Source: a virus
Lineage: Duplodnaviria; Caudoviricetes
DNA length: 64,000 bases
Direction: 5' to 3' (one strand)
Virus record (IMG/VR): IMGVR_UViG_3300044541_000019
Span: 130 to 64,129 of that record
Under the pieces are notes generated by a model. That model worked only from the letters and a program-made list of their open reading frames with translations. It did not search any database and had not been told where the DNA came from. Positions 3,590 to 55,567 of the stretch are shown in pieces (positions within the stretch are counted from its first letter, which is position 1; each line of letters begins with the position of its first letter). The position numbers and the translations under genes are program-made.

Positions 3590-3618
3590 ACACTACCCCA
3601 GGGGGGGGGAGGTGCCAA
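3590..3618 (-). promoter_or_regulatory. sigma70/HrdB-type promoter TTGGCA-17-TAGTGT with C-rich spacer ending TGGGG
   Basis: Read directly; spacer resembles those of other promoters in the window. Confidence 0.6.
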
Positions 3619-4090: not shown

Positions 4091-4223
4091 GGTGTCTCCC
4101 TTGCTCCCGTGGCCGGGATATCCGGCCGTGTGAATCTTACCACCCCCCCTCCCTGGGGAATAGGGGGGAGGGGGGGAGCGTTGGACTCTGACGGATCATT
4201 CTGTCTAACGAAAGGAACAAATC

Positions 4224-4316: not shown

Positions 4317-4774
4317 GCGCGCGCGTGTACGCCATTCAAGGCCGTAACGGTGGCTGGTTTGTGGAGCAACGCAGACCGGACGAAGGTAGCGGCACCTGGG
4401 GCCATCCCATCGGCCCCGTGGGGCCACGGTGGCTTGCCGTGGAAGTCTCCAACGCGCTGAACGACGCATACGAGGCTGGGAAGGCGGACGGGTCCAGCGA
4501 CACCGTGACCCGTCTGACTCGTGAGCCCAACGCCGTACCGTGGCATGACCGGCCTTCCCCGCCGTGCCCGGATTGCTCGCGTCCTGACCCGCACACGCAC
4601 GTGGCGTATCCGGGTAAGTACGTCACAGAGGACCGTGACCGTATCGCGGGTATCGCGTACGGTGCCGACCCAACCGACCCCAAACCCCCCCCCCCCCCCC
4701 AACGCCCCAGGTCCCCCGTCCCCGTACGGTCGACCTGGGGCGTTTCTGTGTGCCCTGGGGCAGCTGGACCGTAG
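4313..4774 (+). CDS. hypothetical protein, 153 aa, Pro-rich C-terminus running through the poly-C tract
   Basis: ORF track; N-terminal half looks globular; 3' end depends on homopolymer length. Confidence 0.5.
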   Translation: MSARVYAIQGRNGGWFVEQRRPDEGSGTWGHPIGPVGPRWLAVEVSNALNDAYEAGKADGSSDTVTRLTREPNAVPWHDRPSPPCPDCSRPDPHTHVAYPGKYVTEDRDRIAGIAYGADPTDPKPPPPPQRPRSPVPVRSTWGVSVCPGAAGP

Positions 4775-5890: not shown

Positions 5891-6033
5891 CTTAGGAATT
5901 TTACTAGAATTTTTCACATGCAACAGACAAAGTACCTGAACCACTTTGCCCAAATGAAGTGCCATAGCTGCCATAGCTGCCACTGAAGTTGTCTAAGCAA
6001 CGATTATGGTGTGGAGGGGAGGGAGGGGGTAGC

Positions 6034-6261
6034 ATGGAGGGTATGAGAATCGAGATTCCTGGGGATGTTCCCCAGGAGAAGCACGACCTCTGGTGCGCTG
6101 TCTTCCGCGCCGGCTACTCCGACATGCGACGGACGTCGTTCAGTGCCCCCAAGATCCGCGAGTCCGAAGCCCTGAAAGACCTGGTTCAACTGGTCCGTGA
6201 GACGTGGCCCGATGCCTACGACGCGGGGGCGTCCAAGGCCTGGAGCGAGGAACAGCAGTGA
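6034..6261 (+). CDS. hypothetical protein beginning MEGMRIEIPG (may start at ATG 6043, possibly leaderless)
   Basis: TAGCAT -10 at 6030; first 34 nt identical to the 63692..63997 gene start. Confidence 0.7.
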   Translation: MEGMRIEIPGDVPQEKHDLWCAVFRAGYSDMRRTSFSAPKIRESEALKDLVQLVRETWPDAYDAGASKAWSEEQQ

Positions 6262-8949: not shown

Positions 8950-9476
8950 CATGTCCGTTCTCTTCTGTCCCTGTCGTGTCACTCCGACTACTCGGGCCTT
9001 TTCGAGTCACATCCCATCCATCCGACACATCGCGCCGTAGCGCATCAACTCCAAGCGACACCTCGCGCCGAATCATCTCATTTCAAACCGACGTGCCTCG
9101 TCAAAACCGGTCTACTCACGCCCATCCGACACACCTAGTCACTCCGGTTCCTCCCCCCTCCGACATGTCGAATCGCGCCCTTTCCTGTCTCGCCAATTCC
9201 GACTCACCGTCTCACATCGCCTCCATTTCATCCCGACTACCCATGTCGCGTCGCCACCCACTCCGATCCGACTAGCCGCTACTGGCCGTGTCCCTACCAG
9301 TCCGACTACGCACTTCATGTCCACTCCTATCCCCCCTATCCGCTACGACTCGTCTCAACTACCCCATTCAAGCCCGATCCGACAAGTCGACTCGTCTCGA
9401 TCTCATGTCTTCTCATCCCGACGACTCGTTTCAATTCGAACCCTGCCCGACGAGCCCATCCACTCCATCTCACTCC
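8947..9476 (+). ncRNA. pentamer-periodic array 1: 14 complete CGAC-terminated units of 29-43 nt plus a partial unit
   Basis: e.g. atg|tccgt|tctct|tctgt|ccctg|tcgtg|tcact|ccgac; tac|tcggg|ccttt|tcgag|tcaca|tccca|tccat|ccgac; intergenic. RNA status is inferred. Confidence 0.75.
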
Positions 9477-9491: not shown

Positions 9492-10040
9492 GTGACAGCG
9501 TTAGAGATCCGCAAGCGGGACTTCGCCACCGACATGCGCAAGCTCATCGACAAGGAACGTTCAGGCAATGGCAGCTACAACGCCAGCGTTCTCGCTCATG
9601 AGATCGCTACCCGACTCCTCACCGAGGACCGGGAGCTGCTGTACGGCTGGCTCGAAGCGCACGCCGTGCCCACCATCCGTGCCGCGATCGTAGCCATCGA
9701 CGCCGCCACCAGGTCATACGCCCGGAAAGGCAACGTGACGTCCCTGTTCGCTGAAGCCGCGAGACAGGCCGAAGGTGGCAACCAGGAACCGCTGCGTCAG
9801 GGTTTCCTGCAGGCCGTGTACGTCATCAACAGCGACAACGACCGTAAGGCGCTCAAGGATATGACAGCTGCAGATGTCCTGTTCGTAGCAGCATCGTACG
9901 AGGACAGGGCGAAGTCAGCGATGCTTGAAGCAGCATTCCTGAGGGCTGTGGCCAAGAAGATTGGACACGGCCGTGTCGCGGACAAGTTCACTAACATCCA
10001 GTTGGCCGAACTGCATTTGCGACTCAAAGGCACAGACTAA
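9492..10040 (+). CDS. helical hypothetical protein, 182 aa, between arrays 1 and 2
   Basis: TAAGGAGG RBS; clean ORF. Confidence 0.85.
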   Translation: MTALEIRKRDFATDMRKLIDKERSGNGSYNASVLAHEIATRLLTEDRELLYGWLEAHAVPTIRAAIVAIDAATRSYARKGNVTSLFAEAARQAEGGNQEPLRQGFLQAVYVINSDNDRKALKDMTAADVLFVAASYEDRAKSAMLEAAFLRAVAKKIGHGRVADKFTNIQLAELHLRLKGTD

Positions 10041-10466
10041 CGACACCACAATCCGGTTCGGTTCTCCTCTCATCTTTCTGACACATCGAGTCAGGTCATG
10101 TCAGTTCGGATCCGTTCGACTCGTCAGCTCGTTGCTTCTTCTATCCATCCCGCCCGACTCGCCAGTTCCCCTTCTCCCTGCACGGCCCACATCCCATCGA
10201 CAGGACAGTCCTGCTCGGTGCTCTCCCAGTCTGCCCCGAACGACCGATCATCTCCTATTCCGCGCCCGTCCCTCCGACGATTCAATCCACCTCAGCTCGC
10301 AACCGACAGATCACGTCTGTCCCGTTCGACTTCTCATATCGTGCCTGTCCAGCTCGCCCCAATCGACAGATCCCGTCTACCCGAGTCAGCTCGCCCCAGG
10401 CGACATCTCGTGCCTTCTCTGTTCGAGTCCGACTTGCCCCCTCTGAACTGTTCTTCTCTATCCGAC
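10041..10466 (+). ncRNA. pentamer-periodic array 2: 12 units of 23-43 nt
   Basis: e.g. aca|tcgag|tcagg|tcatg|tcagt|tcgga|tccgt|tcgac; directly upstream of the RAMP gene. Confidence 0.75.
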
Positions 10467-10489: not shown

Positions 10490-11224
10490 ATGACTGACAC
10501 GCCGAAGCGCGTATTCAGTAGGTATGACAACGAGTCCTACAAGTTCCGCTTCGTTGCGGAGCTGTCCCTATCTACCATCGTTGGTGGCGTCCCCAGTGAC
10601 CCGAAGGTTGCTGAGGGCTGGCTGAAGTCCAAGCTGCAGGAAACCGATGACCGCATCCGCGAAATGGTCGCTGAGATCATGGTGGAGCGTGAGGTGGGCG
10701 TGGAAGAGGCCACTGAGATCGTCAACAGCCTGAAGAACCTCAACGGGTTCAAGCGCACCCCGGCCGGCGTCCTGTTCATTGAGGGACGTCAGGTCAAGGC
10801 CATGATCAAGGAAGCTGCCTCGATCGCGGTGGCGGCCAAAAAGGTCGAGATGACGGGCTGGGGATCCACGCGAAAGTGGCTGTCCAACTTCCTCCCGGAA
10901 CACGTATTCGTGCTGGAGGAGACGATCGAGCTGACCCAGCGCGACGAGGCCGGCAACCTGGTGACAGTGAAGACCCCCACTGGCATCAACCAGCAGTTCG
11001 TGCACACGCACCGAGGCTCCAGCATCCAGTACCAGGAGTTCGTACGTGACGCCGTGGTCACCTTCAACGTCATCTGCGATTGGCCCTTCACCACGAAGGA
11101 CTGGGCCATGATTCTCACCTCTGGGGAGAAGAATGGACTGGGTGCTAGTCGCTCTCAGGGTTATGGCACCTTCGGCGTCACTCGCTGGGATGCCGTTGAC
11201 CTGGAGGGAAAGAAGACCAAGTGA
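10490..11224 (+). CDS. solitary Cas7/RAMP-superfamily protein, 244 aa
   Basis: LFIEGRQVKAMIKEAA (equivalent of IPGSSLKG.LR) and C-terminal Gly-rich loop NGLGASRSQGYGTF; AAAGGAG RBS. Confidence 0.8.
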   Translation: MTDTPKRVFSRYDNESYKFRFVAELSLSTIVGGVPSDPKVAEGWLKSKLQETDDRIREMVAEIMVEREVGVEEATEIVNSLKNLNGFKRTPAGVLFIEGRQVKAMIKEAASIAVAAKKVEMTGWGSTRKWLSNFLPEHVFVLEETIELTQRDEAGNLVTVKTPTGINQQFVHTHRGSSIQYQEFVRDAVVTFNVICDWPFTTKDWAMILTSGEKNGLGASRSQGYGTFGVTRWDAVDLEGKKTK

Positions 11225-12585: not shown

Positions 12586-13023
12586 ATGCCTTTCGTAAAA
12601 CAGCTCATCCAGCTCACGGATGATCAAAAGACAGAGATGCTGACCGTACTTCAGGCACTGAAGGAGGTCGTTACCGAAGCAGGCGAGACATGGACGTACG
12701 TTCGCAGGCCGAACGCAACAGGACTCGGCACTGGCTGCGTCTACGTCCACAATGGTGTACCGGACTGCATCGCCGGCCGAGTCCTCCACAAGCTCGGGGT
12801 CAGCACAGAAGACCTGAGCAAGTGGGAGGGCAAGGTGTGCGGCCAGATGTCGTCAGAGCACCTGACAGTCCAGCTCGATCTTCCTCGGATCCCTTTCGAC
12901 GAACCCAGCCTCGGCGTCCTGAACGTCGCCCAGGACTCCTCAGACAGTGGCTACTCCTGGGGTAGCTCCCTGGAGAAGGCTCGCGCCCACGCGCGGGAGT
13001 TCTACGGAGTGGAACTCTCATGA
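12586..13023 (+). CDS. hypothetical protein, tandem paralog A (GCVYVHNGVPDCIAGRVLHKLGVS)
   Basis: Aligns by eye with 13020..13463. Confidence 0.8.
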   Translation: MPFVKQLIQLTDDQKTEMLTVLQALKEVVTEAGETWTYVRRPNATGLGTGCVYVHNGVPDCIAGRVLHKLGVSTEDLSKWEGKVCGQMSSEHLTVQLDLPRIPFDEPSLGVLNVAQDSSDSGYSWGSSLEKARAHAREFYGVELS

Positions 13024-13463
13024 TCCAGACTCAGCTCACCGACGCCCAAGAGACAGAGATGCTGTCTATGCTCCGAGCCTTGAAGCAGGTCGTTGCCGAG
13101 GCTGGCGATGACTACGTGTACACGAAGAAGATCACCGACCTGTCTGATTACCCAGGCTGCGTCTACGTGTACAACGGTGAGCCTGACTGCCTAGGCGGCC
13201 GTGTCCTAGCCAAGCTCGGGGTAAGCACCGAAACACTCCGAAGCTGGGAGGGGAAGATGTGTGAGTCAATGACAAAGGGCGCCACAGCCCACCCCCTACT
13301 GGGTTTCGGCGACAACTACTACCTTGAACCGCTGTCCTTCTTCAGCCCAACCATGGAGATCCTAGCCCGCGCCCAGAGGTTTCAGGACGCTGGAAATGCT
13401 TGGGGCGAGGTTCGGAACTGGACTCTGCAACTGGCAGCCCAACGATACGGAGTAGTCGCATGA
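13020..13463 (+). CDS. hypothetical protein, tandem paralog B (GCVYVYNGEPDCLGGRVLAKLGVS)
   Basis: Aligns by eye with 12586..13023. Confidence 0.8.
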   Translation: MIQTQLTDAQETEMLSMLRALKQVVAEAGDDYVYTKKITDLSDYPGCVYVYNGEPDCLGGRVLAKLGVSTETLRSWEGKMCESMTKGATAHPLLGFGDNYYLEPLSFFSPTMEILARAQRFQDAGNAWGEVRNWTLQLAAQRYGVVA

Positions 13464-13645: not shown

Positions 13646-13655
13646 AGACCCGAAG

Positions 13656-13687
13656 GTCCCAGCGCTCACGGGGGTGCTGGGACTTTT
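13656..13687 (+). terminator. intrinsic terminator preceding array 3
   Basis: GTCCCAGCGC...GTGCTGGGAC-TTTT. Confidence 0.7.
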
Positions 13688-13707
13688 GGCATGTGCTCGG
13701 CGTCAGG

Positions 13708-14091
13708 CCGACACGCGACCGTACACCTCGTACCTACTCTGTCCTCGCCATCTCGACAAACCCACACAGGCCGATCCGGTCCAGCTCTACTCGACTTACC
13801 GAATCAGTTTCCAGCCCCTCCCCATCCCATCCGACATGTCAACCTTGGTCATCTCCCATCGTTTCCGACAGACCCGCCCTGCCCGCACCCTGGTCACTGC
13901 CGACTCGTCCACTCAGTCCCAACTCCGATCCCATCCATACGACAAGGCAGGTCTCCTCCTGTCGTTCCTAATCACCTCCATCGACCAACCGAATCGAATC
14001 CGATCCCTACCGACATGTCGTCTCACTTCCGTGCCGCTCTACCCACGTCCGACTACCCACCTCCGATCCTCTCGGCTCGCTTCCGCCCAAC
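13708..14091 (+). ncRNA. pentamer-periodic array 3: 10 units of 29-42 nt
   Basis: e.g. aaa|cccac|acagg|ccgat|ccggt|ccagc|tctac|tcgac. Confidence 0.75.
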
Positions 14092-16723: not shown

Positions 16724-16797
16724 TGCGGAGTGGGGCAGAGGTCAGCCCACCGGGCTCATAACCCGCGAGGACGCTGGTTCGAATCCAGCCTCCGCTA
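16724..16797 (+). tRNA. tRNA-Met(CAT), initiator-like
   Basis: Cloverleaf; 1:72 mismatch (T-T); three consecutive G-C pairs at the base of the anticodon stem; GGTTCGAATCC T-arm; no encoded CCA. Confidence 0.85.
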
Positions 16798-17585: not shown

Positions 17586-18404
17586 TCAGACAGATGGATT
17601 GGCGACTGCTTCGCCAGTTGTACCAACGAGAGTGACAGTGCCGTCGATGCTGTGCTTGTGAGGCACCAGAGTTGTCGGCCCTGGATCACCTTTTGGCCCC
17701 TTGAGGGTAGCAACGTCCGGTCCGAAGCACTGGTTGATTCGATCCACTGGCCACGAACTGAGGTCGCCATACAACACCCCACCGTGGGCGTAGATATCAG
17801 TGAGGGCCGAGCCATTCGGAATGACTCTGCGTACACCACCACCGGACACCCACATGCCACCCAGAGCGTTGTGAATGAATACTGCTGACACGTCAGTTGC
17901 CCCTTTCCATTGGGCGGTCGTTTCTCCGCGCAGCACGGACAGTACCGCCGCGAAAGCCTTGGGGTCGGTGACCACGGCCCGACTGAAGCTGAAGTGGATG
18001 TGCCACAAGTGCGACGAGTCCGAGGTAGCAGGCCGCCCGTATCTCGTGTCCCAGCCCTCAACCTGAGTGTCACTGTCGGCCTGACCGTAGAACTCCCGCA
18101 TGTAGTTCAGGCGAGGATCCTGCTGATCCTTGGCCGAGGCCAGTAGCAGACTGGTGTACTTGGCAATGGTGGCGTAGCGCGCACTCTGGGCGTCCGGGAA
18201 AGTCCAGTCGCAGGCCGCGCACATGTCACTGGGACCCAGCTTGTCTACTGCGTCCACGACGGAGTAGTTGGTAGACAGGTTGCCGGCGCGGGTGTTGTGA
18301 TATCCCGGCTTATTGGCATATGTGCCCCCATTTTGGGAGCCAGGAGACAGCGCGAGTAGCGAGTTGACGAAGTTCGTCATCGCCGGGGTAGTAGCGTACG
18401 CCAT
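17586..18404 (-). CDS. endolysin, Zn-peptidase (M15/LAS-like) type
   Basis: GYHN...ACDW...HLWHIHFS metal-binding pattern; position next to holin. Confidence 0.7.
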   Translation of the reverse strand: MAYATTPAMTNFVNSLLALSPGSQNGGTYANKPGYHNTRAGNLSTNYSVVDAVDKLGPSDMCAACDWTFPDAQSARYATIAKYTSLLLASAKDQQDPRLNYMREFYGQADSDTQVEGWDTRYGRPATSDSSHLWHIHFSFSRAVVTDPKAFAAVLSVLRGETTAQWKGATDVSAVFIHNALGGMWVSGGGVRRVIPNGSALTDIYAHGGVLYGDLSSWPVDRINQCFGPDVATLKGPKGDPGPTTLVPHKHSIDGTVTLVGTTGEAVANPSV

Positions 18405-26252: not shown

Positions 26253-29200
26253 GGATCCACGGGGGTGGGCGTATCAGTGACCTCCACGATGGCTACCGGA
26301 GCCATGTATAGGCGCCGGTCACGTTGCACATCCCCGTTAGGTACGGAGACGTTGGCGAACCATCGGTTCCCGTCCTCGTCTCGCAGGCAGATGTAGGGGA
26401 CGTTCACCCAAGCCATGTTGCGCAGGCCGGTGAAGTCCTCCAGCGTTTCTGGGGAGATGGCTGCGGCCTGGACTAGGAGGTTGCGACTGAAGTTGGTGCC
26501 GCCACGCTCCGTGGGACGGAAGGCGGTGACGTAGTCCCGGCCGTACATGGTCTGGAAGGTTTGGCCAGCAGCCTCGGGGAAGTTGAAGCTCTCGTGAACC
26601 TCTCCTTCCCAGCCGAGGCAGTAGGCCAGGTTACTGGCTCCCGACTGCACGGAGTTGGTGGTGAAGATCCAGACGTGATCGTTGGCTCCGACACTGGTGG
26701 CAGTGACGCCGGGAGCTGCGATCGTGCTGGAGATGGTGGCGGACCATGGACCTGCGAACTCCAGGACGTTCACCTTGCGGATCCGGTAGCTGGTCAGGAT
26801 CGCCACTCTGGCTTCGTAGTCGTTGAAGGTGAGGAGACCTTGGTTCGTCGCCTTCATGATCGTCTTCCAGGTGGGGTCCACTGTGTCCATGCGCTGGATC
26901 TCGGTGTACCCCAGGTCGTAGTTAGACACCGTGATGTTGTCGTACGAGATCGTCATGGCGCCAGCACCCGAAACCGATCGAGTGACAACAGTGCCAGCGT
27001 TCGGGTTAGCCACAGTGACTACCTCAAGGAGCCAGTGGTCTGGTTCAGGGTCGCCGTCCAACCAGGCCTTGCCCTTGAAACTGGAACCGAACAACTGCAG
27101 TCTCAGCTTCACTCTGGTGCCAGGAATGTACCGACCAGCGAACACGACGTTGCCTAGTTGCGTGTGCACGCCACCAACCGCACTGGACAGGAACAACTTC
27201 ACTGTTCCATCGGCAGGGAAGTTGACCTCTCCGTACAGGTGATCGCCGGCTCCGTTGTCCCGAAGCCCGATAGAGCCCCAGTGATCCAGGGTGGTAGCCG
27301 CTGTGTCCGACCAGATCTCCGCATAGGCGTTGACATTTCGCGCTGAGAACGAGGCCAGTCGCGTGATGCGGTAAGAGCCGGTGGTGGACAGTAGGACATT
27401 GCCAACGGAACCGTTCACAGAGAAGTCCGTAGCCGATCCACCAGTTGCCGTCCAGGCCTGCCCGCCCGTGGACGTACCCCAGCCACTGGCTACGACCCTG
27501 GAGAACACGTCCGTCATCTGGTTCACGGTGTCGAGGCCCCAGGCCAGCTGGTTGTACGCAATCTGGCTAGGAATGAAGGCAGGGTTGATGCCACAGTTCA
27601 GACCGATGCCAGACACAGCCTGGTTCAGCTGCGTGATACCGAACCCAGACACAGCCGCAGAGTCCTGGCTGAACATGAGTACCGCGTCAGCGCTCATGTC
27701 ATCAGTTGGCTGGAGGATAGTTAGGTCGTCGAACACCATGGACTGCGGCAACGTGTTGGTGTTGCCTGCAGTGATGAATGATGCAATGCGGATTGATCCA
27801 GCACCCGGTAGAGCCCCATCGAACACAGTGAGAAGCCAAGCTGTTGGTTCAGGCGTACCTCCAGTAGTAAGCCAGCCCTTCGCTTGCAAGGTGTTGCCAA
27901 TGATCCTGAACCTAACAGTGACGCTGTTAGGCGGGACTACGCCGGGGATGACTGTGGGACCAACAAGGCCTGTTGCCACCCCGGCAACGTTTTTACCAAT
28001 AGTCAAGGTGATGGTGTTGGCAGTGGTGCGCGTAACCGTTAAACGGTAATGATTGTTTACATCGATATACCTAACATCGTGGAATGACACAAAGCTCTGG
28101 GTTAGTGGTGCTGCTCCCAAGGTGCTGTCGTCAGCGACGCGGTAGTCGATGTTTGCCTGAGGGACGATACCCAGCACGATTGAGTCGGTTGTGACCGTAG
28201 TGGTATGCACGTGCCGTGCGTCGGAACCGGTGGTGGTGAATTCAGATGTCGTGCCAGTAGCAATGGTCCAGACCTGACCGGTATCTGCGGTACCCCAGCC
28301 ATTGGCTGTGACTCTGGAGAACGTGTCTTGTATCGCGGCGTAGTTCGGCTGAGTGCCTTGGTCTGACAGCGTCCCCGGATTCCAGGTCATGTTGATAGTG
28401 GCACCGGCGTTCGGCTGGCCATAGGTTGCGTTGTACAACTGGCCAGGGAAGGTAGCCAGGGAGGAGGTGTTCCCTGGTGTCCCCGAGAGCGCCACGGCAG
28501 CAGCCCCCAGTACTTCCCATCGGTTGGCCTTCAGCTCAGAGGCAGATGACCAAATCCACTGTGGATTGGTACCAGTGCCCATGGTCGGAGCTGTTGGGAA
28601 CCTGAGGGTTACTTCCTTCCAGCCATCGATGATCGGCTGGAGGGCGTCCCACTGAGCGGGGGTGATGCTGACGTTCATCCCTGCCCCGGAGATGCTCGGC
28701 GAGGACAAGGTGAGCGGGACTGTCGTGTCACCGAATCGGCGGGCGTAGAACCGCACCTGAGGATAGGTGGATGAAGTCAGCCCGACATCGTAGATGTCTT
28801 GGGCGGCAGTGAAAGCGCCGTAGACCTGAGCAACAACCTGGGTCCCGTAGGCGTGGACCTCGGTCAGTGGCCCACTAGATGTATGCACGGACAGCTGCGG
28901 CAGGATGGGAGTCTGAATAGCTGTAAATGTCTCTCCCTCTGCCGTGTCGTCCATGGGAAACGGCAAGTTTACTTGCACACCGGGCTGGTTGGGCATCGCG
29001 TACAACTCACGGAGCGCGTTCAAGGAAGAGAAATCAGAGGTGGTTGCGGCCAGGTTGTCGTTGTTGCCGCCCACGTCAGCCGATGACAGAGTCACCGTGT
29101 AATTCCCGGCAGGGATGACGGGGTTTGCCGTGTACGACAGATCCCTGAGGGTTAGTGCGTTGACTCCGAGGAGAGTGTCCTGTCCGAATGAGGCAGAGGA

Positions 29201-47866: not shown

Positions 47867-48585
47867 CGGCCTCCTTCATCAACGATCACTAGGTCGCACC
47901 TACAGTTGATCACTTCTTCCGCTGGCCCCATAGGGTCGCCGGGGAACAGCATCGGCCACCCGCCCACGTTGAAGGGCTGATACAGCGGCAGGGTGACGTT
48001 GTCTATGGCTCGGTGGCTGGCCCGGACTCTGTCGTCGTGCTCCGTTCGCCAACGCTTTTGTAGTACTCGGCCAGTGACGCGAGACTGCTCCAAGCCTGCC
48101 GCAGCAGTTCCTGCTCCATAGGCTCGGGTGACCTCGGTAATAGCGATGACTCGGGCGCGATTAGCCCACCGCTCAGATCCAGTTGTCGCAAGAGCGTCAT
48201 CAACCCTCGCCGCAATGGCAGATACGGACTCTCCACTGTTGACTCCGTCGTTTATCTCCGCGAAGACAAGGTTGTAGACCTCGTCCGGGATACGGACCAG
48301 AAAGTTCTGCGTCTGTGCGAGTTGTGCGACGACGAACGCATGACGCGACACCGGCGGTACGTCCGTCGCCTCACTCCACGCTCCCATTGCTATCTGACCC
48401 ATGACGGTCAGGATCGTGTCGTACTGCCACTGGTCCTGAGCTTGGTAGATGCCACTAGGGTCGGGCATCCCTTTCCAGGATCGAAAGGGAGCCATAACCT
48501 TGTCTCGGGCAGCATTGATGAAGCGGTCCAGTGCGGCCTTGACTACACCGAACAGCTTGTTCTCGTCGCCACTACGATTCGCCAT
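47863..48585 (-). CDS. MuF-like minor capsid / head morphogenesis protein
   Basis: RARVIAITE; KRW....DDRVR.SH; FPGDP.GP.EEVINCRC. Confidence 0.9.
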   Translation of the reverse strand: MANRSGDENKLFGVVKAALDRFINAARDKVMAPFRSWKGMPDPSGIYQAQDQWQYDTILTVMGQIAMGAWSEATDVPPVSRHAFVVAQLAQTQNFLVRIPDEVYNLVFAEINDGVNSGESVSAIAARVDDALATTGSERWANRARVIAITEVTRAYGAGTAAAGLEQSRVTGRVLQKRWRTEHDDRVRASHRAIDNVTLPLYQPFNVGGWPMLFPGDPMGPAEEVINCRCDLVIVDEGGR

Positions 48586-50509
48586 TGAGGAAACCTTGCC
48601 GAGAGAGCATCTCCCAGAGCAGTCCAGCTTCGTGTGGACGCTCAGCTTCCAGCAATGTCGAGCAGTAGCGGTGAAGCGTCACCGCAAGCTCAGGATCTTG
48701 AAGTTGCGGCATCTCCAGGAACTCCGCGAGCGCAGGCATCTGGTCCCAGGCTCCGGTGAGTAGCTTGGAAGCACCGCCAGGGTGAACCTTCACTCTGGTA
48801 TGCAACGAATAGGCGGGGGTGTCCTGCATTGTCCGGTGATGATTCCCGACAAGTCGTTTACCTGCGACTTCTAACGCTCGGAGTACCGCCATATTGGCGA
48901 CAGCGAAGACGGCTTGCGTTCCCGCAACGGCGGTGGTCGCGGAAGCAGTTATCCCAGGTGGCTGACTGGAGTTGGGCGCAGTGGGGCCACCAGGTGTCGA
49001 AATCGCTGAGGAGTCCTGAGGCATAGGTGCTGGCCCGGTGGGCTGGATGCCGGTAGGAGGAGCAGGAGGCGGGGGAGGACCCGCCCCCTGCTGACCGGGT
49101 GCAACGGGGGTAACGACAGTGTTCGGGGGAAGAATGTCGTCTGTGTACCCGGCGATCTTGCGCACCGCTGGGATCTGGAACAGCGTGGGGTCGCGCTCCA
49201 TCAGCGTACGAGTGAACTTCTTCAGATCCTCGTCAACACTCGGCTTGTCCGTCAAGGCGAAGTCACCAGCGAGGATGACTGCTTCGTCGGAGATGATCCC
49301 CTTTTCGTTCAGATTGAGGGCATCCTTCAGCCGCTCCGGGCGCACCGTCAGTGGGGCAGTATCGAACCAGAAGACGAACCGGTCTGGGTCTTCCTTGATC
49401 GTCTTCAGTGCTGGTTCAAGGTAGGCACTCGTCAGCGCATCACAGATGCGCGTCATGAGAGGCTCAATGTGGATCTTGATGTTCGCTTCTTCGACGTGCC
49501 AAGCGGACCAGTGGTTAGCATCGCCCGTGCCGGTAAGGATCTCGGGTGCTATGTCCATAGCCAGAGCGAACCGGCGGATAGCTTCCGCACGCAGATCGAG
49601 AGCCTGTTTGCTGAGTTCCGAGCCGAAGGTAACCATCTCGATCTTGCCGAGAGCGTCCATCGGCACCTCAACGAACATGGGTACTACACCAGCCGCTGTT
49701 CCTTCGCCCTTGAGCGAACGGCTGCCTGCTTTCATCATCGCCTGGGTGAGACCTTCGGCCCCAGGGACAGTGACGTCATTGCTGTCGTCGGGGAAGCTGG
49801 CTTCCTTGGGGATCGGGACCATGCCGGCTGAGATGAGCCGGGAATCGATCTGGGCGAAGACGTAGCGGGTTAGTCGTTCAATCTCCCACAACATGGGCAT
49901 GGCTGCCCGGGTAGGAGAGTCGGCCCAGAGACTACGTCGGGGATGAGGTGTCCAGACCCGGATGACGATGTCCTTGTCCAGGTCAAGGGACTCTTTAGTT
50001 CCGTCGGGATAGAGCTGTTGAACGTTGCCGTTCCACCGTTTGAGTTCAGAACAACTGACGATGTACCACTCGTCAGCCTCATTGTCCCGAACCGCACCTC
50101 GACCAACGATGTAGCAGTCCCCGGCGATGGTGAGGTTGATCCCCAGCATTCGAAGAGCTTCCGACTGAGCCGCTGGAGAACCGAACATGTTCTCTGCAAT
50201 AGCAGCGACCTTCGGCTTCTTGGTCTCCTGCTGTACCCGTCCATTCTTGTCCACCTCCGCTACGTAGATGCGCACCCTGGAGCAGGCTGACCCGATCCAG
50301 TTAGCCGCGAAACGCAGCTCGCCGATGATGTCGTACAGACGCCAGACTTCTTGTTGCCAGGAGTCGTCTCCGAAGCGATAAGTCCGCCATCCCTGCCCGT
50401 CAACGTTCCTGATGCGGGCGGCGCTGGCGATCAGCGACTTCATTTCCGACTTGTGAGCTTCCGGTTCCGGTTGGGCATCTAGGGCCTTGGGCCGGCGGAA
50501 TGCTGCCAT
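48572..50509 (-). CDS. portal protein
   Basis: WQQEVW..YD.IGELRFA, W.PHP...ADSP, NHWSAW, FWFDT. Confidence 0.85.
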   Translation of the reverse strand: MAAFRRPKALDAQPEPEAHKSEMKSLIASAARIRNVDGQGWRTYRFGDDSWQQEVWRLYDIIGELRFAANWIGSACSRVRIYVAEVDKNGRVQQETKKPKVAAIAENMFGSPAAQSEALRMLGINLTIAGDCYIVGRGAVRDNEADEWYIVSCSELKRWNGNVQQLYPDGTKESLDLDKDIVIRVWTPHPRRSLWADSPTRAAMPMLWEIERLTRYVFAQIDSRLISAGMVPIPKEASFPDDSNDVTVPGAEGLTQAMMKAGSRSLKGEGTAAGVVPMFVEVPMDALGKIEMVTFGSELSKQALDLRAEAIRRFALAMDIAPEILTGTGDANHWSAWHVEEANIKIHIEPLMTRICDALTSAYLEPALKTIKEDPDRFVFWFDTAPLTVRPERLKDALNLNEKGIISDEAVILAGDFALTDKPSVDEDLKKFTRTLMERDPTLFQIPAVRKIAGYTDDILPPNTVVTPVAPGQQGAGPPPPPAPPTGIQPTGPAPMPQDSSAISTPGGPTAPNSSQPPGITASATTAVAGTQAVFAVANMAVLRALEVAGKRLVGNHHRTMQDTPAYSLHTRVKVHPGGASKLLTGAWDQMPALAEFLEMPQLQDPELAVTLHRYCSTLLEAERPHEAGLLWEMLSRQGFLNGES

Positions 50510-50512
50510 GGA

Positions 50513-50803
50513 CTACTCCCTGTCTGCCATACGGAGTGCGATGGCCGCCGCCATGGACCCGGCGGGGATTGACAGAGCGGCAAGTACCCACTGATTGTGC
50601 CAGAAAACGGACACAGGCATCAAAACTGAGAACCACATGGACATACACCAGGGAGCGCAGTGAATGAGTCGAGTAGCCATGTGGGTGGGGCCGAATCGTT
50701 TAACGACTGCCTTCCTGAACCACGTGGTGATCTCATCCTCCGCGATCAGACGCGCGAGGCGGGCCGCTGCGAGGGCAGCGACAACCATGGTCAGGACCAG
50801 CAC
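50513..50803 (-). CDS. DUF1360-like membrane protein
   Basis: RL.RLI..D.IT...R and L.HC.PWC.S.W. Confidence 0.7.
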   Translation of the reverse strand: MLVLTMVVAALAAARLARLIAEDEITTWFRKAVVKRFGPTHMATRLIHCAPWCMSMWFSVLMPVSVFWHNQWVLAALSIPAGSMAAAIALRMADRE

Positions 50804-50896
50804 GCTTACTACTCTAATGGGATCAAGAGCACAAGGGGTAGATGGCTGATCAGATGGTTCATTATGGACAGAGCACTAGGGAGGGGTAGGGTGGCA

Positions 50897-51259
50897 GAGA
50901 CAACGCAGCACGTATCACATCGACGTACCTGCTCTTCTCTCGTCAGTTCTTCACCGACAACTCATGACGACTCGTTCCCTCTCGACTGCACAGCTCTTGC
51001 CTTATCCACGCTCCACCGACAGGCCTCAACGCGCCTACTCCGCTCACCATCACGTCCGACGAGCCCATTCATCCCCTGCCACGTCCGACTAATCACCTCG
51101 AATCTGAGCACATCGATCCCTACCCGACGAATCGCGTCGATCCCTCACGCACCCGACGTCCCACGTCAAGTCACTTCATGTCCGACTACGCTGCTTAGCC
51201 CATGTCATGTCACATCACCACCGACTCTCCATCCCTCCTCCGCTCCGCTCTTGTCCGAC
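50897..51259 (+). ncRNA. pentamer-periodic array 4: 11 units of 23-40 nt, antisense to the late operon
   Basis: e.g. gtc|ccacg|tcaag|tcact|tcatg|t|ccgac; upstream AGGGAGGGG-TAGGGT -10-like element at 50887. Confidence 0.75.
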
Positions 51260-52696
51260 TCACCAATGCGGTTGAAGCTGGGACAGATCGTAGAAGTCCT
51301 GAGAAAGTGACCACTCGTGCTGGGAGGGCTGCGCAACCCGCATCACGCGCCGCTCTCCCCGCATGAGGTGCAAGGCGCCATGTACCAGGGCGTCCATCCG
51401 GTCCGGTGATTCCCTTGTGGATTCAGGATCGAAGATCACCATTTCGGATTCGAGTTCCTCGAACTCGCCCACCATGTGCAGTCGTTTCTGTTCACAGCGC
51501 ATGGCTACTGGTTCAGCTCTTGTACGTTTGCCATGTTTCGCGTGCACCGGATACATAGAAGGAGAGCTATGTTCGGGGAAGAGTCCCAGGCTTATGGATT
51601 CCTTGAAGGCATCCTGGAGTACTTCCGCGAGGTACCTTTTGCCGAGGTTCTCTTCATAGACAAGGGTGTCGGCATCCCATTTGGCCATTGCTCGCCAAGC
51701 TGCCAGGGCTGCTGTTCGACCACTCTGTTCCACCGAGGCATCTTCAAGTACGTAGAGATCGTTGTTCACTGTACGAGCGACGACGACGATCCCGAACAGG
51801 TCGTCTTCTCCAGTCAGGTTCGGGTCAACCCCAACCACCGTGGCGACAATGTCATCGGGTACCTCGGTAACCCGACCGTTGACTATGTCCATCCGTTTGA
51901 ATAGGCCGCCGCCACCCAGCTCCAGTAGCTTCCCGTACAACTCCTGCTGTCCGAGCGCGGAGTCTGCGTACCTGTTCTTCAGCTCCCGCAACACGTGCTG
52001 AGACAGGTTGGTGGAGTTGTCGAACGTGGACCCCCCCATGATGTGGATGGTGCCATCGTCCCGCTTCACCCACTCTTGCAGCAGTTTGATGGGCTTCGGG
52101 GTGGTGGTGGCGAAGCAGCGAGGATGGTCGCCCACCAGGTCGGTACGCAAGGAAGGCAGGATCCCCTCATACCAGCTTTCATACGACTTAGGCCATTTAC
52201 AGATCTCGTCTACCCAGGCGCCGGCCGCGTTGTAACCGCGACCGACATCCTCGTCGTCTGCACCCTCCGCATAGATCCGGGACCCATCTGGGAACAGCAC
52301 CATGGGTCGCGGGGACTGCTTGTACCTGAAGTCGACGCCACGTCTGGTAAGGACGCGCAGGAGTCCTGCTGGTCCTTCCATGCAAATGGTGCGAGTGTCA
52401 GCAAGCGTCTCGCCAATGAGGAGCCATTCCGTGGGCTGACCGTTTCGGTCAAATGGGTGCTGGAGCACTTTCTCCACGAGCCACTCTGCCCCTGCTCTGC
52501 TCTTTCCCCAGCCTCGGCCAGCCAGTGCCAGTGCAACCAGCCAGTCTCCTGGTGGGGGCACCTGCTCTGGACGGGCGGTCCACCACCATTCCCCTCGGTT
52601 GATCTCCTCCAGCAGGTGTACCGGGAGTGAGGCGAGCCAGCTGTCCCGCTCATGTACGGGGAGCTTGGCTACCCGTTGTGCGAGAGATAGACCCAT
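51260..52696 (-). CDS. terL: terminase large subunit
   Basis: Walker A AGRGWGKS; Walker B WVDE; TTTPK; nuclease VGVDP; SPDRMDALV. Confidence 0.95.
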   Translation of the reverse strand: MGLSLAQRVAKLPVHERDSWLASLPVHLLEEINRGEWWWTARPEQVPPPGDWLVALALAGRGWGKSRAGAEWLVEKVLQHPFDRNGQPTEWLLIGETLADTRTICMEGPAGLLRVLTRRGVDFRYKQSPRPMVLFPDGSRIYAEGADDEDVGRGYNAAGAWVDEICKWPKSYESWYEGILPSLRTDLVGDHPRCFATTTPKPIKLLQEWVKRDDGTIHIMGGSTFDNSTNLSQHVLRELKNRYADSALGQQELYGKLLELGGGGLFKRMDIVNGRVTEVPDDIVATVVGVDPNLTGEDDLFGIVVVARTVNNDLYVLEDASVEQSGRTAALAAWRAMAKWDADTLVYEENLGKRYLAEVLQDAFKESISLGLFPEHSSPSMYPVHAKHGKRTRAEPVAMRCEQKRLHMVGEFEELESEMVIFDPESTRESPDRMDALVHGALHLMRGERRVMRVAQPSQHEWSLSQDFYDLSQLQPHW

Positions 52697-52739
52697 GTGC
52701 CCACTTTAGACATGTTCGCTGTCAGTGAACATATTCAGG

Positions 52740-53085: not shown

Positions 53086-53158
53086 GGACCCGTAGCTCAG
53101 CTGGAAGAGCAGTGGCCTCTTAAGCCAACGGTCGTAGGTTCAAGTCCTACTGGGTCCA
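53086..53158 (+). tRNA. tRNA-Lys(CTT)
   Basis: Cloverleaf; anticodon loop CT-CTT-AA; GGTTCAAGTCC T-arm; no encoded CCA. Confidence 0.85.
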
Positions 53159-53159
53159 C

Positions 53160-53229
53160 GGGTCCGTAGCTTAACTGGCAGAGTCCGGCATTCTCGCCGG
53201 GGATGTGGGTTCGAATCCCACGGGGTCCA
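53160..53229 (+). tRNA. atypical tRNA-like gene with 6-nt anticodon loop (ATTCTC); identity unresolved
   Basis: TAGCTTAACTGGCAGAGT D-arm; CCGGC/GCCGG stem; GTGGG-TTCGAAT-CCCAC T-arm; weak acceptor stem. Confidence 0.55.
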
Positions 53230-54406: not shown

Positions 54407-54477
54407 TGTCATGTTGCCCAATGGCAGGGCAACGGCCTATGGAGCCGTGGATCTGGGTTCGATTCCCAGCCTGACAA
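54407..54477 (+). tRNA. tRNA-like gene with ATG anticodon (His-type) and one acceptor-stem mismatch
   Basis: TGCCC/GGGCA D-stem; ACGGC-CTATGGA-GCCGT; CTGGG-TTCGATT-CCCAG. Confidence 0.6.
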
Positions 54478-55135: not shown

Positions 55136-55567
55136 ATGATCCACAGTATGCCCACTGTTGATCAGCACGTCAGCCATGGCCGCAACCTGATACACACTGG
55201 AGGCCTGGCCATCCTGCGGTACCGACTGGGTCTGACCAGGTCAGCGATGGCAGAGATGCTCCACATGTCACCGATCACCTACAACAAGTGCGAAGACCCA
55301 GACATGGCCGGCAGGGTCTGGTCCAGCACCGCCGAGCGGCTCGGAAGGTTCTGCTGGCTTGCCGAGAATCACCTTGAACGTCTGCACCAGGAAGGCATCG
55401 AGGTATCCCAGCTGAGCCCGCTGCACGTCCTCGCCACCCAGTACGGCCTGCCCCAGGAACTCATCCTCAGCTGGTATCGCAGCGGGGAGCTGCCGGCCCT
55501 GGACCTCGGTGTGCTGGGTCTGTGGCTGCACAAGGAAGACGAACACCTGTTACTGGAGGCGGTATGA
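55136..55567 (+). CDS. XRE-like HTH DNA-binding protein with a second, possibly excisionase-like, HTH
   Basis: LRYRLGLTRSAMAEMLHMSPITYNKCE. Confidence 0.7.
   Translation: MIHSMPTVDQHVSHGRNLIHTGGLAILRYRLGLTRSAMAEMLHMSPITYNKCEDPDMAGRVWSSTAERLGRFCWLAENHLERLHQEGIEVSQLSPLHVLATQYGLPQELILSWYRSGELPALDLGVLGLWLHKEDEHLLLEAV

Follow-up and report, generated by a model that had tools for sequence, protein, structure and literature searches.

VIPR, a relative of CRISPR, was first described in 2026 (bioRxiv 10.64898/2026.04.26.720920, 10.64898/2026.04.26.720927). It consists of a lone phage-borne RAMP protein (Vipr), an accessory gene (vap) and guide RNAs of 5-nt repeats; a fixed GGY in the guides is held by the protein, and the variable bases read double-stranded DNA with a gap and silence competing mobile elements (10.64898/2026.04.26.720920). 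Canonical Vipr reads G1 and G2 through conserved contacts (10.64898/2026.04.26.720920, 10.64898/2026.04.26.720927). Here we analysed array 4, a tract of 5-nt repeats between the terL and DUF1360 genes in 64,000 nt of phage DNA (IMG/VR record IMGVR_UViG_3300044541_000019, positions 130 to 64,129). This stretch, hereafter the window, covers approximately the whole of the 64,129-bp virus record (G+C 60%) and is of an actinobacterial phage type. Judged from its sequence, array 4 is probably an additional guide RNA (vrRNA) array of the phage's own VIPR system, which would be transcribed on the plus strand from its own promoter.

Several departures from the canonical repeat have been described. The methods and fig. 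S18 of the first report give the variant repeats NNNGG, YNNNG and NNNNG as well as staggered arrays with a 1-nt overlap, and those sections treat the staggered arrays briefly and without RNA sequencing confirmation (10.64898/2026.04.26.720920). A later report adds the non-canonical repeats GAC/NN, CAC/NN and others (bioRxiv 10.64898/2026.10.21.760802). Solo vrRNAs of satellites and vipr-null phages act in trans and hijack or redirect Vipr (bioRxiv 10.64898/2026.10.15.759431). Our reference was the phiSUSP1 locus (KT454805.2), where YNNGG runs flank the genes at 28031-29061 on their coding (vipr) strand and where the 195-aa Vipr protein is that of PDB entry 36pp.

Array 4 and its sequence grammar

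The intervals between the CGAC delimiters of array 4 (Table 1) measure, in order, 34, 13, 15, 34, 40, 29, 39, 29, 29, 39 and 34 nt. The initial annotation of this DNA had reported 11 units with the same grammar and strand as arrays 1-3; this is the number of intervals, and eight of them are clean units of the form CGAC + (NNNYC)5-7 with lengths of 29, 34 or 39 nt (5n+4). The remainder consists of one interval with a 1-nt insertion (40 nt) and two short intervals (13 and 15 nt) that together look like one decayed unit. In the clean units, position 5 of the pentamer is C in 98% of cases and position 4 is a pyrimidine (Y) in 83%, and positions 1-3 are approximately uniform. C outnumbers G in the region by 146 to 53. 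Sequences simulated from a first-order Markov model of the region (20,000 runs) contained 0.011 clean units on average and never more than 2, compared with the 8 observed.

Period-5 Fourier power (single bases, 150-nt windows) missed the arrays because each 4-nt delimiter shifts the phase, and it was replaced by a delimiter-anchored grammar scan. Over both strands of the whole window the scan found exactly four arrays, all on the plus strand, and none on the minus strand. Its limits for array 1 (8985-9383) and array 3 (13716-14053) differ slightly from those in Table 1. At none of the four did Tandem Repeats Finder report a tandem or direct repeat. None of the array 4 units is a copy of a unit from arrays 1-3. 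No excess of RNA structure was found at array 4 (z = +0.7 for the plus strand and -0.3 for the minus strand). A CRISPR array was considered and rejected: there are no long (23-50 nt) direct repeats, the delimiter has 4 nt, and the intervening sequence is periodic in 5-nt steps.

We pooled 228 distinct units from 22 sources (the window, L001-L047, G001 and G005). Their lengths form two series, 5n+4 and 5n+3, so the delimiter can be read either as CGAC or as GAC with a shared C. In prophage arrays the first pentamer is often TACCC or TTCCC, which hints at a longer 5' handle.

The arrays and a Cas7-fold protein form one system

The gene taken as vipr lies 39.7 kb from array 4, in agreement with the distance of about 40 kb given in the initial annotation. 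An AlphaFold (AF2) model of its product (pLDDT 78) gave type VII Cas7 and Csm3 as top Foldseek matches (E values down to 1e-7, probability 1.0), and the VIA aligner returned Z scores of 11.1-9.3 over 141-179 residues to Csm3, type IV Cas7, Cmr4 and gRAMP. In metagenomes, 763 homologues were found, with an invariant loop GxGxSRSQGxG. Behind the first strand, the model has an insertion of three low-confidence helices (residues 38-82), which may correspond to the alpha-bundle of SUSP1 Vipr, where the skipped target base is cradled. The vap-like gene is located directly upstream of array and vipr in 11 loci, and the AF2 model of its product (pLDDT 86) had no fold match in the PDB. Pfam, PHROGs and PADLOC contained no family for either the vipr candidate or the vap-like gene. 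No Pfam cas family was found among the genes neighbouring vipr, where cas1 and cas2 were not searched for explicitly.

A CGAC-delimited, C-phased array was present beside vipr in all 14 homologue loci (30-56% identity), which come from Microcystis phage Mae-JY09 and from prophages or contigs of Nocardiopsis, Streptomyces, Streptosporangium, Actinomadura, Streptacidiphilus and others. In each of them it is the vipr coding strand of the array, never the opposite one, that is C-rich. Most of these arrays are situated between the stop codon of the 182-aa (vap-like) gene and the ribosome-binding site of vipr. Among whole phages, G005 (vipr 75% identical) has four plus-strand arrays including one at the position of array 4, and G001 (vipr 56% identical) has a single 18-unit array before vipr. 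The complete relative G002, which has no vipr, has no arrays. We concluded that the arrays and the Vipr protein are one system, because the arrays track vipr in loci and in whole phages and are absent from the vipr-less G002.

This system resembles VIPR in its lone RAMP with a glycine-rich loop, in the flanking tandem 5-nt repeats and in the hypervariable guides. No structured invariant 3' tail was found after the repeat tract, which is compatible with the staggered architecture as far as it is set out in the published methods. As modelled, the system belongs to a non-canonical, pyrimidine-anchored clade of VIPR. The cyanophage Mae-JY09, an isolated phage annotated with hypothetical proteins only, carries a vipr homologue (31% identity) and, after it, a 10-unit C-phased CGAC array and a terminal hairpin (PP395641.1 38461-38961; L034:6668-7168), and offers a cultivable system.

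A recurring promoter-like element precedes array 4

The TAGGGT hexamer upstream of array 4 lies within GGGGTAGGGT and follows AGGGAGGGG. The block TTGGAC...GGGGTAGGGTG has been kept in 7 of 7 array-bearing relatives while the adjoining bases diverge (alignment A2). The same class of element was found elsewhere in the window: GGGGTAGCAT at 6026 (+) likewise follows ATTATGG...AGGGAGGGG and has an ATG 7 nt after the -10, and GGGGTAGTGT at 3599 (-), with TTGGCA 16 nt upstream, heads a minus-strand block. In G002, GGGGTAGGGT followed by 7 nt and ATG occurs in both terminal inverted repeats and points inward (L058:104-130, plus strand, and L060, G002 position 55354, minus strand). In G001, GGGGTAGGGT is followed by 6 nt and ATG at 17620 (+), and the same class occurs again at 52720 (+). 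Leaderless starts are common in Actinobacteria.

The element belongs to a recurring putative promoter class with leaderless starts, of which array 4 holds an exact copy. This agrees with the earlier reading of the G-rich motif plus TAGGGT as an element seen at other promoters of this phage. Because the class recurs at operon heads, a plus-strand transcription start near 50899-50900 is a reasonable prediction, and array 4 and the vipr block probably share their regulation. A second, weaker promoter-like block, 45 nt upstream of the main one and also kept in the relatives, may form a tandem promoter with it. The class (GGGGTAGGGT, 6-7 nt, leaderless start) helps annotation in this group of soil phages. 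Directly upstream of array 3, at about 13655-13690 (+), we noticed a terminator-like hairpin and a T run followed by TTTTGGCA. This last motif resembles the -35 part of the promoter class; a matching -10 was not seen before array 3.

Array 4 in related phages

The initial annotation had proposed comparing related phages for the presence or absence of this insert. All seven terL relatives in IMG/VR with at least 83% identity (L001-L006 and L027) carry an array directly after the terL stop and antisense to it. In terL relatives at 75% identity or less the array is absent, and terL is separated from the DUF1360 gene by ~10 nt (10 nt in L010). By this comparison, array 4 was inserted only in the sub-lineage whose terL identity is at least 83%. 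A blastn search of the terL region against the phage collection gave no match.

The flanks of array 4 share 94-96% nucleotide identity with L001 and L005. The alignment breaks off at 50951 or 50983 and is picked up again at 51253; between these points the array body could not be aligned, some units being shared and others unique, and whole units having been gained or lost. Such turnover of units is the behaviour that would be expected of a guide array. The argument that one polarity, kept against the local direction of transcription, speaks for selection on the RNA sequence carries little weight. The polarity common to the seven carriers goes back to a single ancestral insertion of promoter and array. 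Agreement with the strand of vipr is a 1-in-2 event, and either hypothesis on the strand leaves one set of arrays antisense to its neighbours.

Guide strand and targets

We consider it likely, with good confidence, that the C-rich (plus) strand is the guide. This strand is favoured because the arrays are co-oriented with vipr at every locus, because the promoter-like element is conserved and because little structure is predicted for the C-rich RNA (-0.16 kcal/mol per nt vs. -0.31 for its complement or for neighbouring coding RNA). It is also favoured because the local arrays are embedded in the plus-strand vap-vipr operon with gaps too short for promoters of their own, and because the SUSP1 arrays are co-oriented with vipr as well. 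Over the 228 units, positions 1 and 2 of the pentamer carry approximately no information, position 3 has a weak C bias, position 4 is medium (Y) and position 5 strong (C). Across units the plus strand has C at 92-98% and Y at 83-86% (NNNYC), and the minus strand reads GRNNN.

Targets were sought under six decoding rules (NNN+0/1/2, NNNN+0/1 and NN+1). Within the window the guides have no self-targets, their matches being no better than those of shuffled guides. Against ~0.65 Mb of related loci (1.3 Mb on both strands) and whole relatives, nothing rose above shuffled controls. When IMG/VR was scanned for exact matches to one 7-pentamer array 4 guide, reading NNN and skipping 0 or 1 base, the counts were 0 and 0. 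Two scans with a 9-pentamer prophage guide under NN+1 rules gave one match each, in contigs of 32-34% GC, and both were set aside as chance. In a codon-usage likelihood test for the read positions, codon-phase models did no better than independent sites. Three read bases per pentamer seem more plausible than two, because 5-7 pentamers under NN specify only 10-14 bases, which at the short end are too few for specificity in a host genome of ~10 Mb.

Points against and alternative explanations

A number of results weigh against reading array 4 as a plus-strand guide array of the phage's own VIPR system. A scan for E. coli-type consensus (sigma-70) promoters and terminators made no call at array 4. 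In the window, GGGGTAGGGT with up to 2 mismatches is not enriched (53 matches vs. 67 expected), and the promoter assignment rests on motif recurrence, position and context, not on counts. An hhalign comparison of alignment A1 with SUSP1 Vipr aligned 65 columns that include the G-loop, without significance (E 0.18, probability 0.3%); phmmer and hmmsearch against PDB sequences found no Vipr match, and the fold libraries did not return 36pp. Membership in VIPR is suggested by fold and context. The arrays of the window do not follow the GGY/NN (YNNGG) consensus; the published variants (NNNGG, NNNNG, GAC/NN and CAC/NN) show that VIPR accepts other motifs. No natural target emerged under any decoding rule tried. 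Further points of this kind concern the strand. The gradient on the opposite strand (G, R, weak, N, N) mirrors canonical GGY-NN, the arrays of high-GC prophages read GGNNN on the G-rich strand, similar to the NNNGG type listed in the methods of the first report, and Vipr might bind the minus-strand RNA, for which the late terL transcript would be the source in the case of array 4.

The strongest alternative is built on these last observations. It holds that the functional guide is the G-rich minus strand, (GRNNN)n-GTCG, from the late terL-DUF1360-portal transcript, with arrays 1-3 antisense to the vap-vipr operon. Besides the gradient and the GGNNN reading, it fits the G1 and G2 contacts of canonical Vipr and the short fixed mark 3' of the repeat tract, which is placed as the canonical tail, and it makes a promoter for array 4 unnecessary. 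It would require a guide antisense to vipr in 14 of 14 loci, whose arrays are wedged between vap and vipr with gaps of ~25-80 nt. Antisense promoters would then be needed inside coding genes, and the guide would pair with the operon mRNA. In phiSUSP1 the arrays run in the direction of vipr, the folding predicted for the G-rich RNA is as strong as that of ordinary mRNA, and the early-type promoter aimed into the C-rich strand of array 4 in all seven carriers is left unexplained. We regard a G-rich guide as unlikely; the claim that the plus-strand, C-rich RNA is the functional molecule probably stands, with the resemblance of the other strand to GGY/NN and NNNGG as the point against it.

Array 4 might also be a decoy or an offensive solo array aimed at the Vipr of rival phages, or one that redirects complexes, and would not then serve the phage's own defence. 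Solo vrRNAs that hijack or redirect Vipr are described (10.64898/2026.10.15.759431), and array 4 is physically and transcriptionally apart from the vipr operon and was acquired in one sub-lineage only. This is very unlikely: vipr and three arrays of identical grammar are present in the same genome, the units of array 4 are indistinguishable from those of arrays 1-3, and, apart from homologous units, its guides have no match in vipr or in the arrays of relatives. Another reading, a non-functional VIPR array copy decaying in an intergenic gap that tolerates it, would account for the irregular intervals (3 of 11, with 13, 15 and 40 nt), the larger number of irregular units in L027 and L006 and the missing target. 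We rate such decay as scarcely probable. Position 5 is still C in nearly all pentamers of the clean units, the promoter element has been kept, units have been exchanged and not eroded between genomes with flanks of 94-96% identity, and the array persists in seven diverged relatives (terL identity down to 83%).

Close to refuted is a DNA-level element (packaging signal, iterons or binding sites at half-helical-turn spacing) or a coding or low-complexity stretch, for which the adjoining terL, a 216-codon open frame across array 4 (50660-51310, plus strand) and the mimicry of the grammar by Pro/Thr-rich coding linkers might speak: the grammar occurs beside vipr in every homologue locus and not in the complete, vipr-less G002, relatives share the terL-portal module without the array, no reading frame is compatible with a period of 5 nt that is reset by 4 nt, and unit gains or losses of 29, 34 or 39 nt shift any frame. 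The plus-strand open frame was rejected as coding, with stops in every frame in L006 and L027, and so was coding on the terL strand across array 4, with stops in every frame in all relatives. An array-like match upstream of terL at L017:3133-3309 proved to be such a Pro/Thr-rich linker within a 423-aa open reading frame and was discarded as a false positive of the filter.

Neighbouring genes and coordinates

Structural genes of the phage are mostly on the minus strand, and a plus-strand gene block extends over ~6-16.5 kb. Profile matches confirmed the identities given earlier to the two minus-strand genes whose gap array 4 fills (Table 1). The terL stop codon abuts the final CGAC of array 4, and the same junction is found in relatives. 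On its own strand, the DUF1360 gene has a -10-like TAGAGT (50816-50811) followed by 7 nt and the GTG start at 50803, an arrangement of leaderless type, and the ACTCTAA before this gene is kept in array-bearing relatives. This suggests that the late genes downstream of the array 4 insert may have gained their own start or promoter.

Four tRNA genes are on the plus strand (16724-16797, 53086-53158, 53160-53229 and 54407-54477), and three of them cluster just upstream of terL, where the reading is otherwise on the minus strand. Rfam at gathering thresholds returned these four tRNAs and nothing else in the window. Two adjacent paralogues between vipr and array 3 (12586-13023 and 13020-13463, plus strand) both match phrog_572 (unknown function). 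In the leftward early region, at 4685-4700 and 4163-4178, we noticed a run of 16 C and, close to it, a GGGGGGAG tandem.

Table 1. Positions of the arrays, promoter-like elements and genes discussed in the text (window numbering).
Feature	Positions	Strand	Remarks
Paralogous promoter-like element	5998-6035	+	ATTATGG...AGGGAGGGGGTAGCAT; heads plus-strand operon with vap, vipr and arrays 1-3
Array 1	8985-9451	+	Grammar as array 4
vap-like gene	9492-10040	+	182 aa, all-helical; candidate accessory gene
Array 2	10117-10466	+	Grammar as array 4; ends 24 nt before vipr start
vipr candidate	10490-11224	+	Lone 244-aa Cas7-fold RAMP; invariant G-loop GLGASRSQGYG near C-terminus
Array 3	13754-14053	+	Grammar as array 4
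Portal gene	48572-50509	-	
DUF1360 gene	50513-50803	-	PF07098 2e-6, phrog_781 1e-16
Second, weaker promoter-like block	50817-50844	+	ATGGGA-N16-TAGATG; shares AGAGCAC...GGGG with main block; found by eye
Promoter-like element	50864-50892	+	-35-like ATGGAC 50864-50869, 17-nt G-rich spacer, -10-like TAGGGT 50887-50892
Leader	50893-50920	+	From -10-like hexamer to first CGAC
Array 4	50921-51259	+	12 CGAC delimiters, 11 intervals; candidate staggered vrRNA (guide) array
terL	51260-52696	-	Terminase_6N 6e-22, Terminase_6C 2e-9

Discussion

If array 4 is an additional guide array of the phage's own VIPR system, it would be transcribed on the plus (C-rich) strand from the early-type promoter, with a start near 50899, and the transcript would run antisense to the late terL-DUF1360-portal genes. 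The precursor would be cut or delimited at the (C)GAC marks to give guides of 5-7 pentamers. Vipr from the locus 40 kb away would coat each guide with one protomer per NNNYC, holding YC and exposing the variable bases, and competing mobile elements would be silenced through binding of the complexes to their matching DNA, as in canonical VIPR. The sequences themselves establish the grammar, the protein-array link, the insertion with its unit turnover and the conserved promoter class; we infer the transcription, processing, Vipr binding, strand and targets of array 4. Action of the arrays in trans, as the initial annotation had supposed, would be in keeping with the known behaviour of VIPR guide RNAs (10.64898/2026.10.15.759431).

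A more tentative proposal, which we hold to be possible but short of probable, is that a clade of Vipr (at least 763 homologues, in actinobacterial and cyanobacterial phages) switched from a purine to a pyrimidine anchor and that in one sub-lineage a promoter-array cassette was copied antisense into the late block. If the anchor has switched, an NNNYC guide would offer each protomer two fixed bases and at most three for reading, and guides could be as short as 5-7 steps and follow one another directly, parted by a (C)GAC mark of 3-4 nt. In that case GGY would not be essential to the VIPR code, and Vipr proteins could differ in how many bases a protomer reads. If the cassette was copied as proposed, array 4 would be an independently timed second source of guides.

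Array 4 is largely explained by a known system, VIPR, and is not a new kind of system. What is new here is the NNNYC grammar with (C)GAC marks and short guides, the antisense promoter-array cassette and its lineage-specific acquisition. VIPR has so far been characterised only for the GGY/NN guides of enterobacterial and Pseudomonas phages, and the window is a compact and complete example of a divergent clade, with a vap-like gene, an array, vipr, further arrays and a remote promoter-bearing array. It raises the questions of whether pyrimidine-anchored guides can be used by Vipr, how many bases are read per protomer and whether arrays spread as promoter-array cassettes.

The system in the window is similar to VIPR type II (Escherichia phage SUSP1, Pseudomonas fulva prophage) in its phage-borne, lone Cas7-like RAMP with a G-loop, in its small partner gene, in the several arrays around the protein gene with no self-targets, and in non-CRISPR arrays with a strict 5-nt period and both fixed and hypervariable positions. 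It differs in the repeat, which is NNNYC on the vipr sense strand (GRNNN opposite) instead of YNNGG, with two fixed positions instead of three. Guides are shorter (5-7 pentamers vs. 9-16), and a 3-4-nt (C)GAC mark parts the units, whereas SUSP1-type VIPR has a structured 3' tail. The protein has 244 aa compared with 195 aa for SUSP1 Vipr, the G-loop residues at the positions that read G1 and G2 differ, and the partner gene is without a recognisable fold. With regard to the staggered arrays in the published methods, the 5n+4 and 5n+3 units fit a 1-base overlap, with the C of CGAC able to serve also as the final base of a pentamer. As in the staggered and alternative-repeat forms listed there, fewer positions are fixed than in GGY.

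Class 1 CRISPR systems share with this locus a Cas7-fold protein expected to coat the guide at a fixed step, the cassette-like gain and loss of units, and a leader or promoter at one end of the array. Repeats of at least 20 nt, as in CRISPR, are absent here. The delimiter has only 4 nt, and the spacers are coded in 5-nt steps and therefore cannot be captured fragments. Similar to solo or orphan vrRNAs, array 4 is a guide locus away from vipr and must act in trans on Vipr. Its own genome encodes vipr, however, 40 kb away, so that array 4 is remote and not orphan in the published sense. The published solo loci consist of 1-2 vrRNAs left after deletion of vipr-vap, whereas array 4 is a full 11-interval, promoter-bearing array that lies antisense in the late genes.

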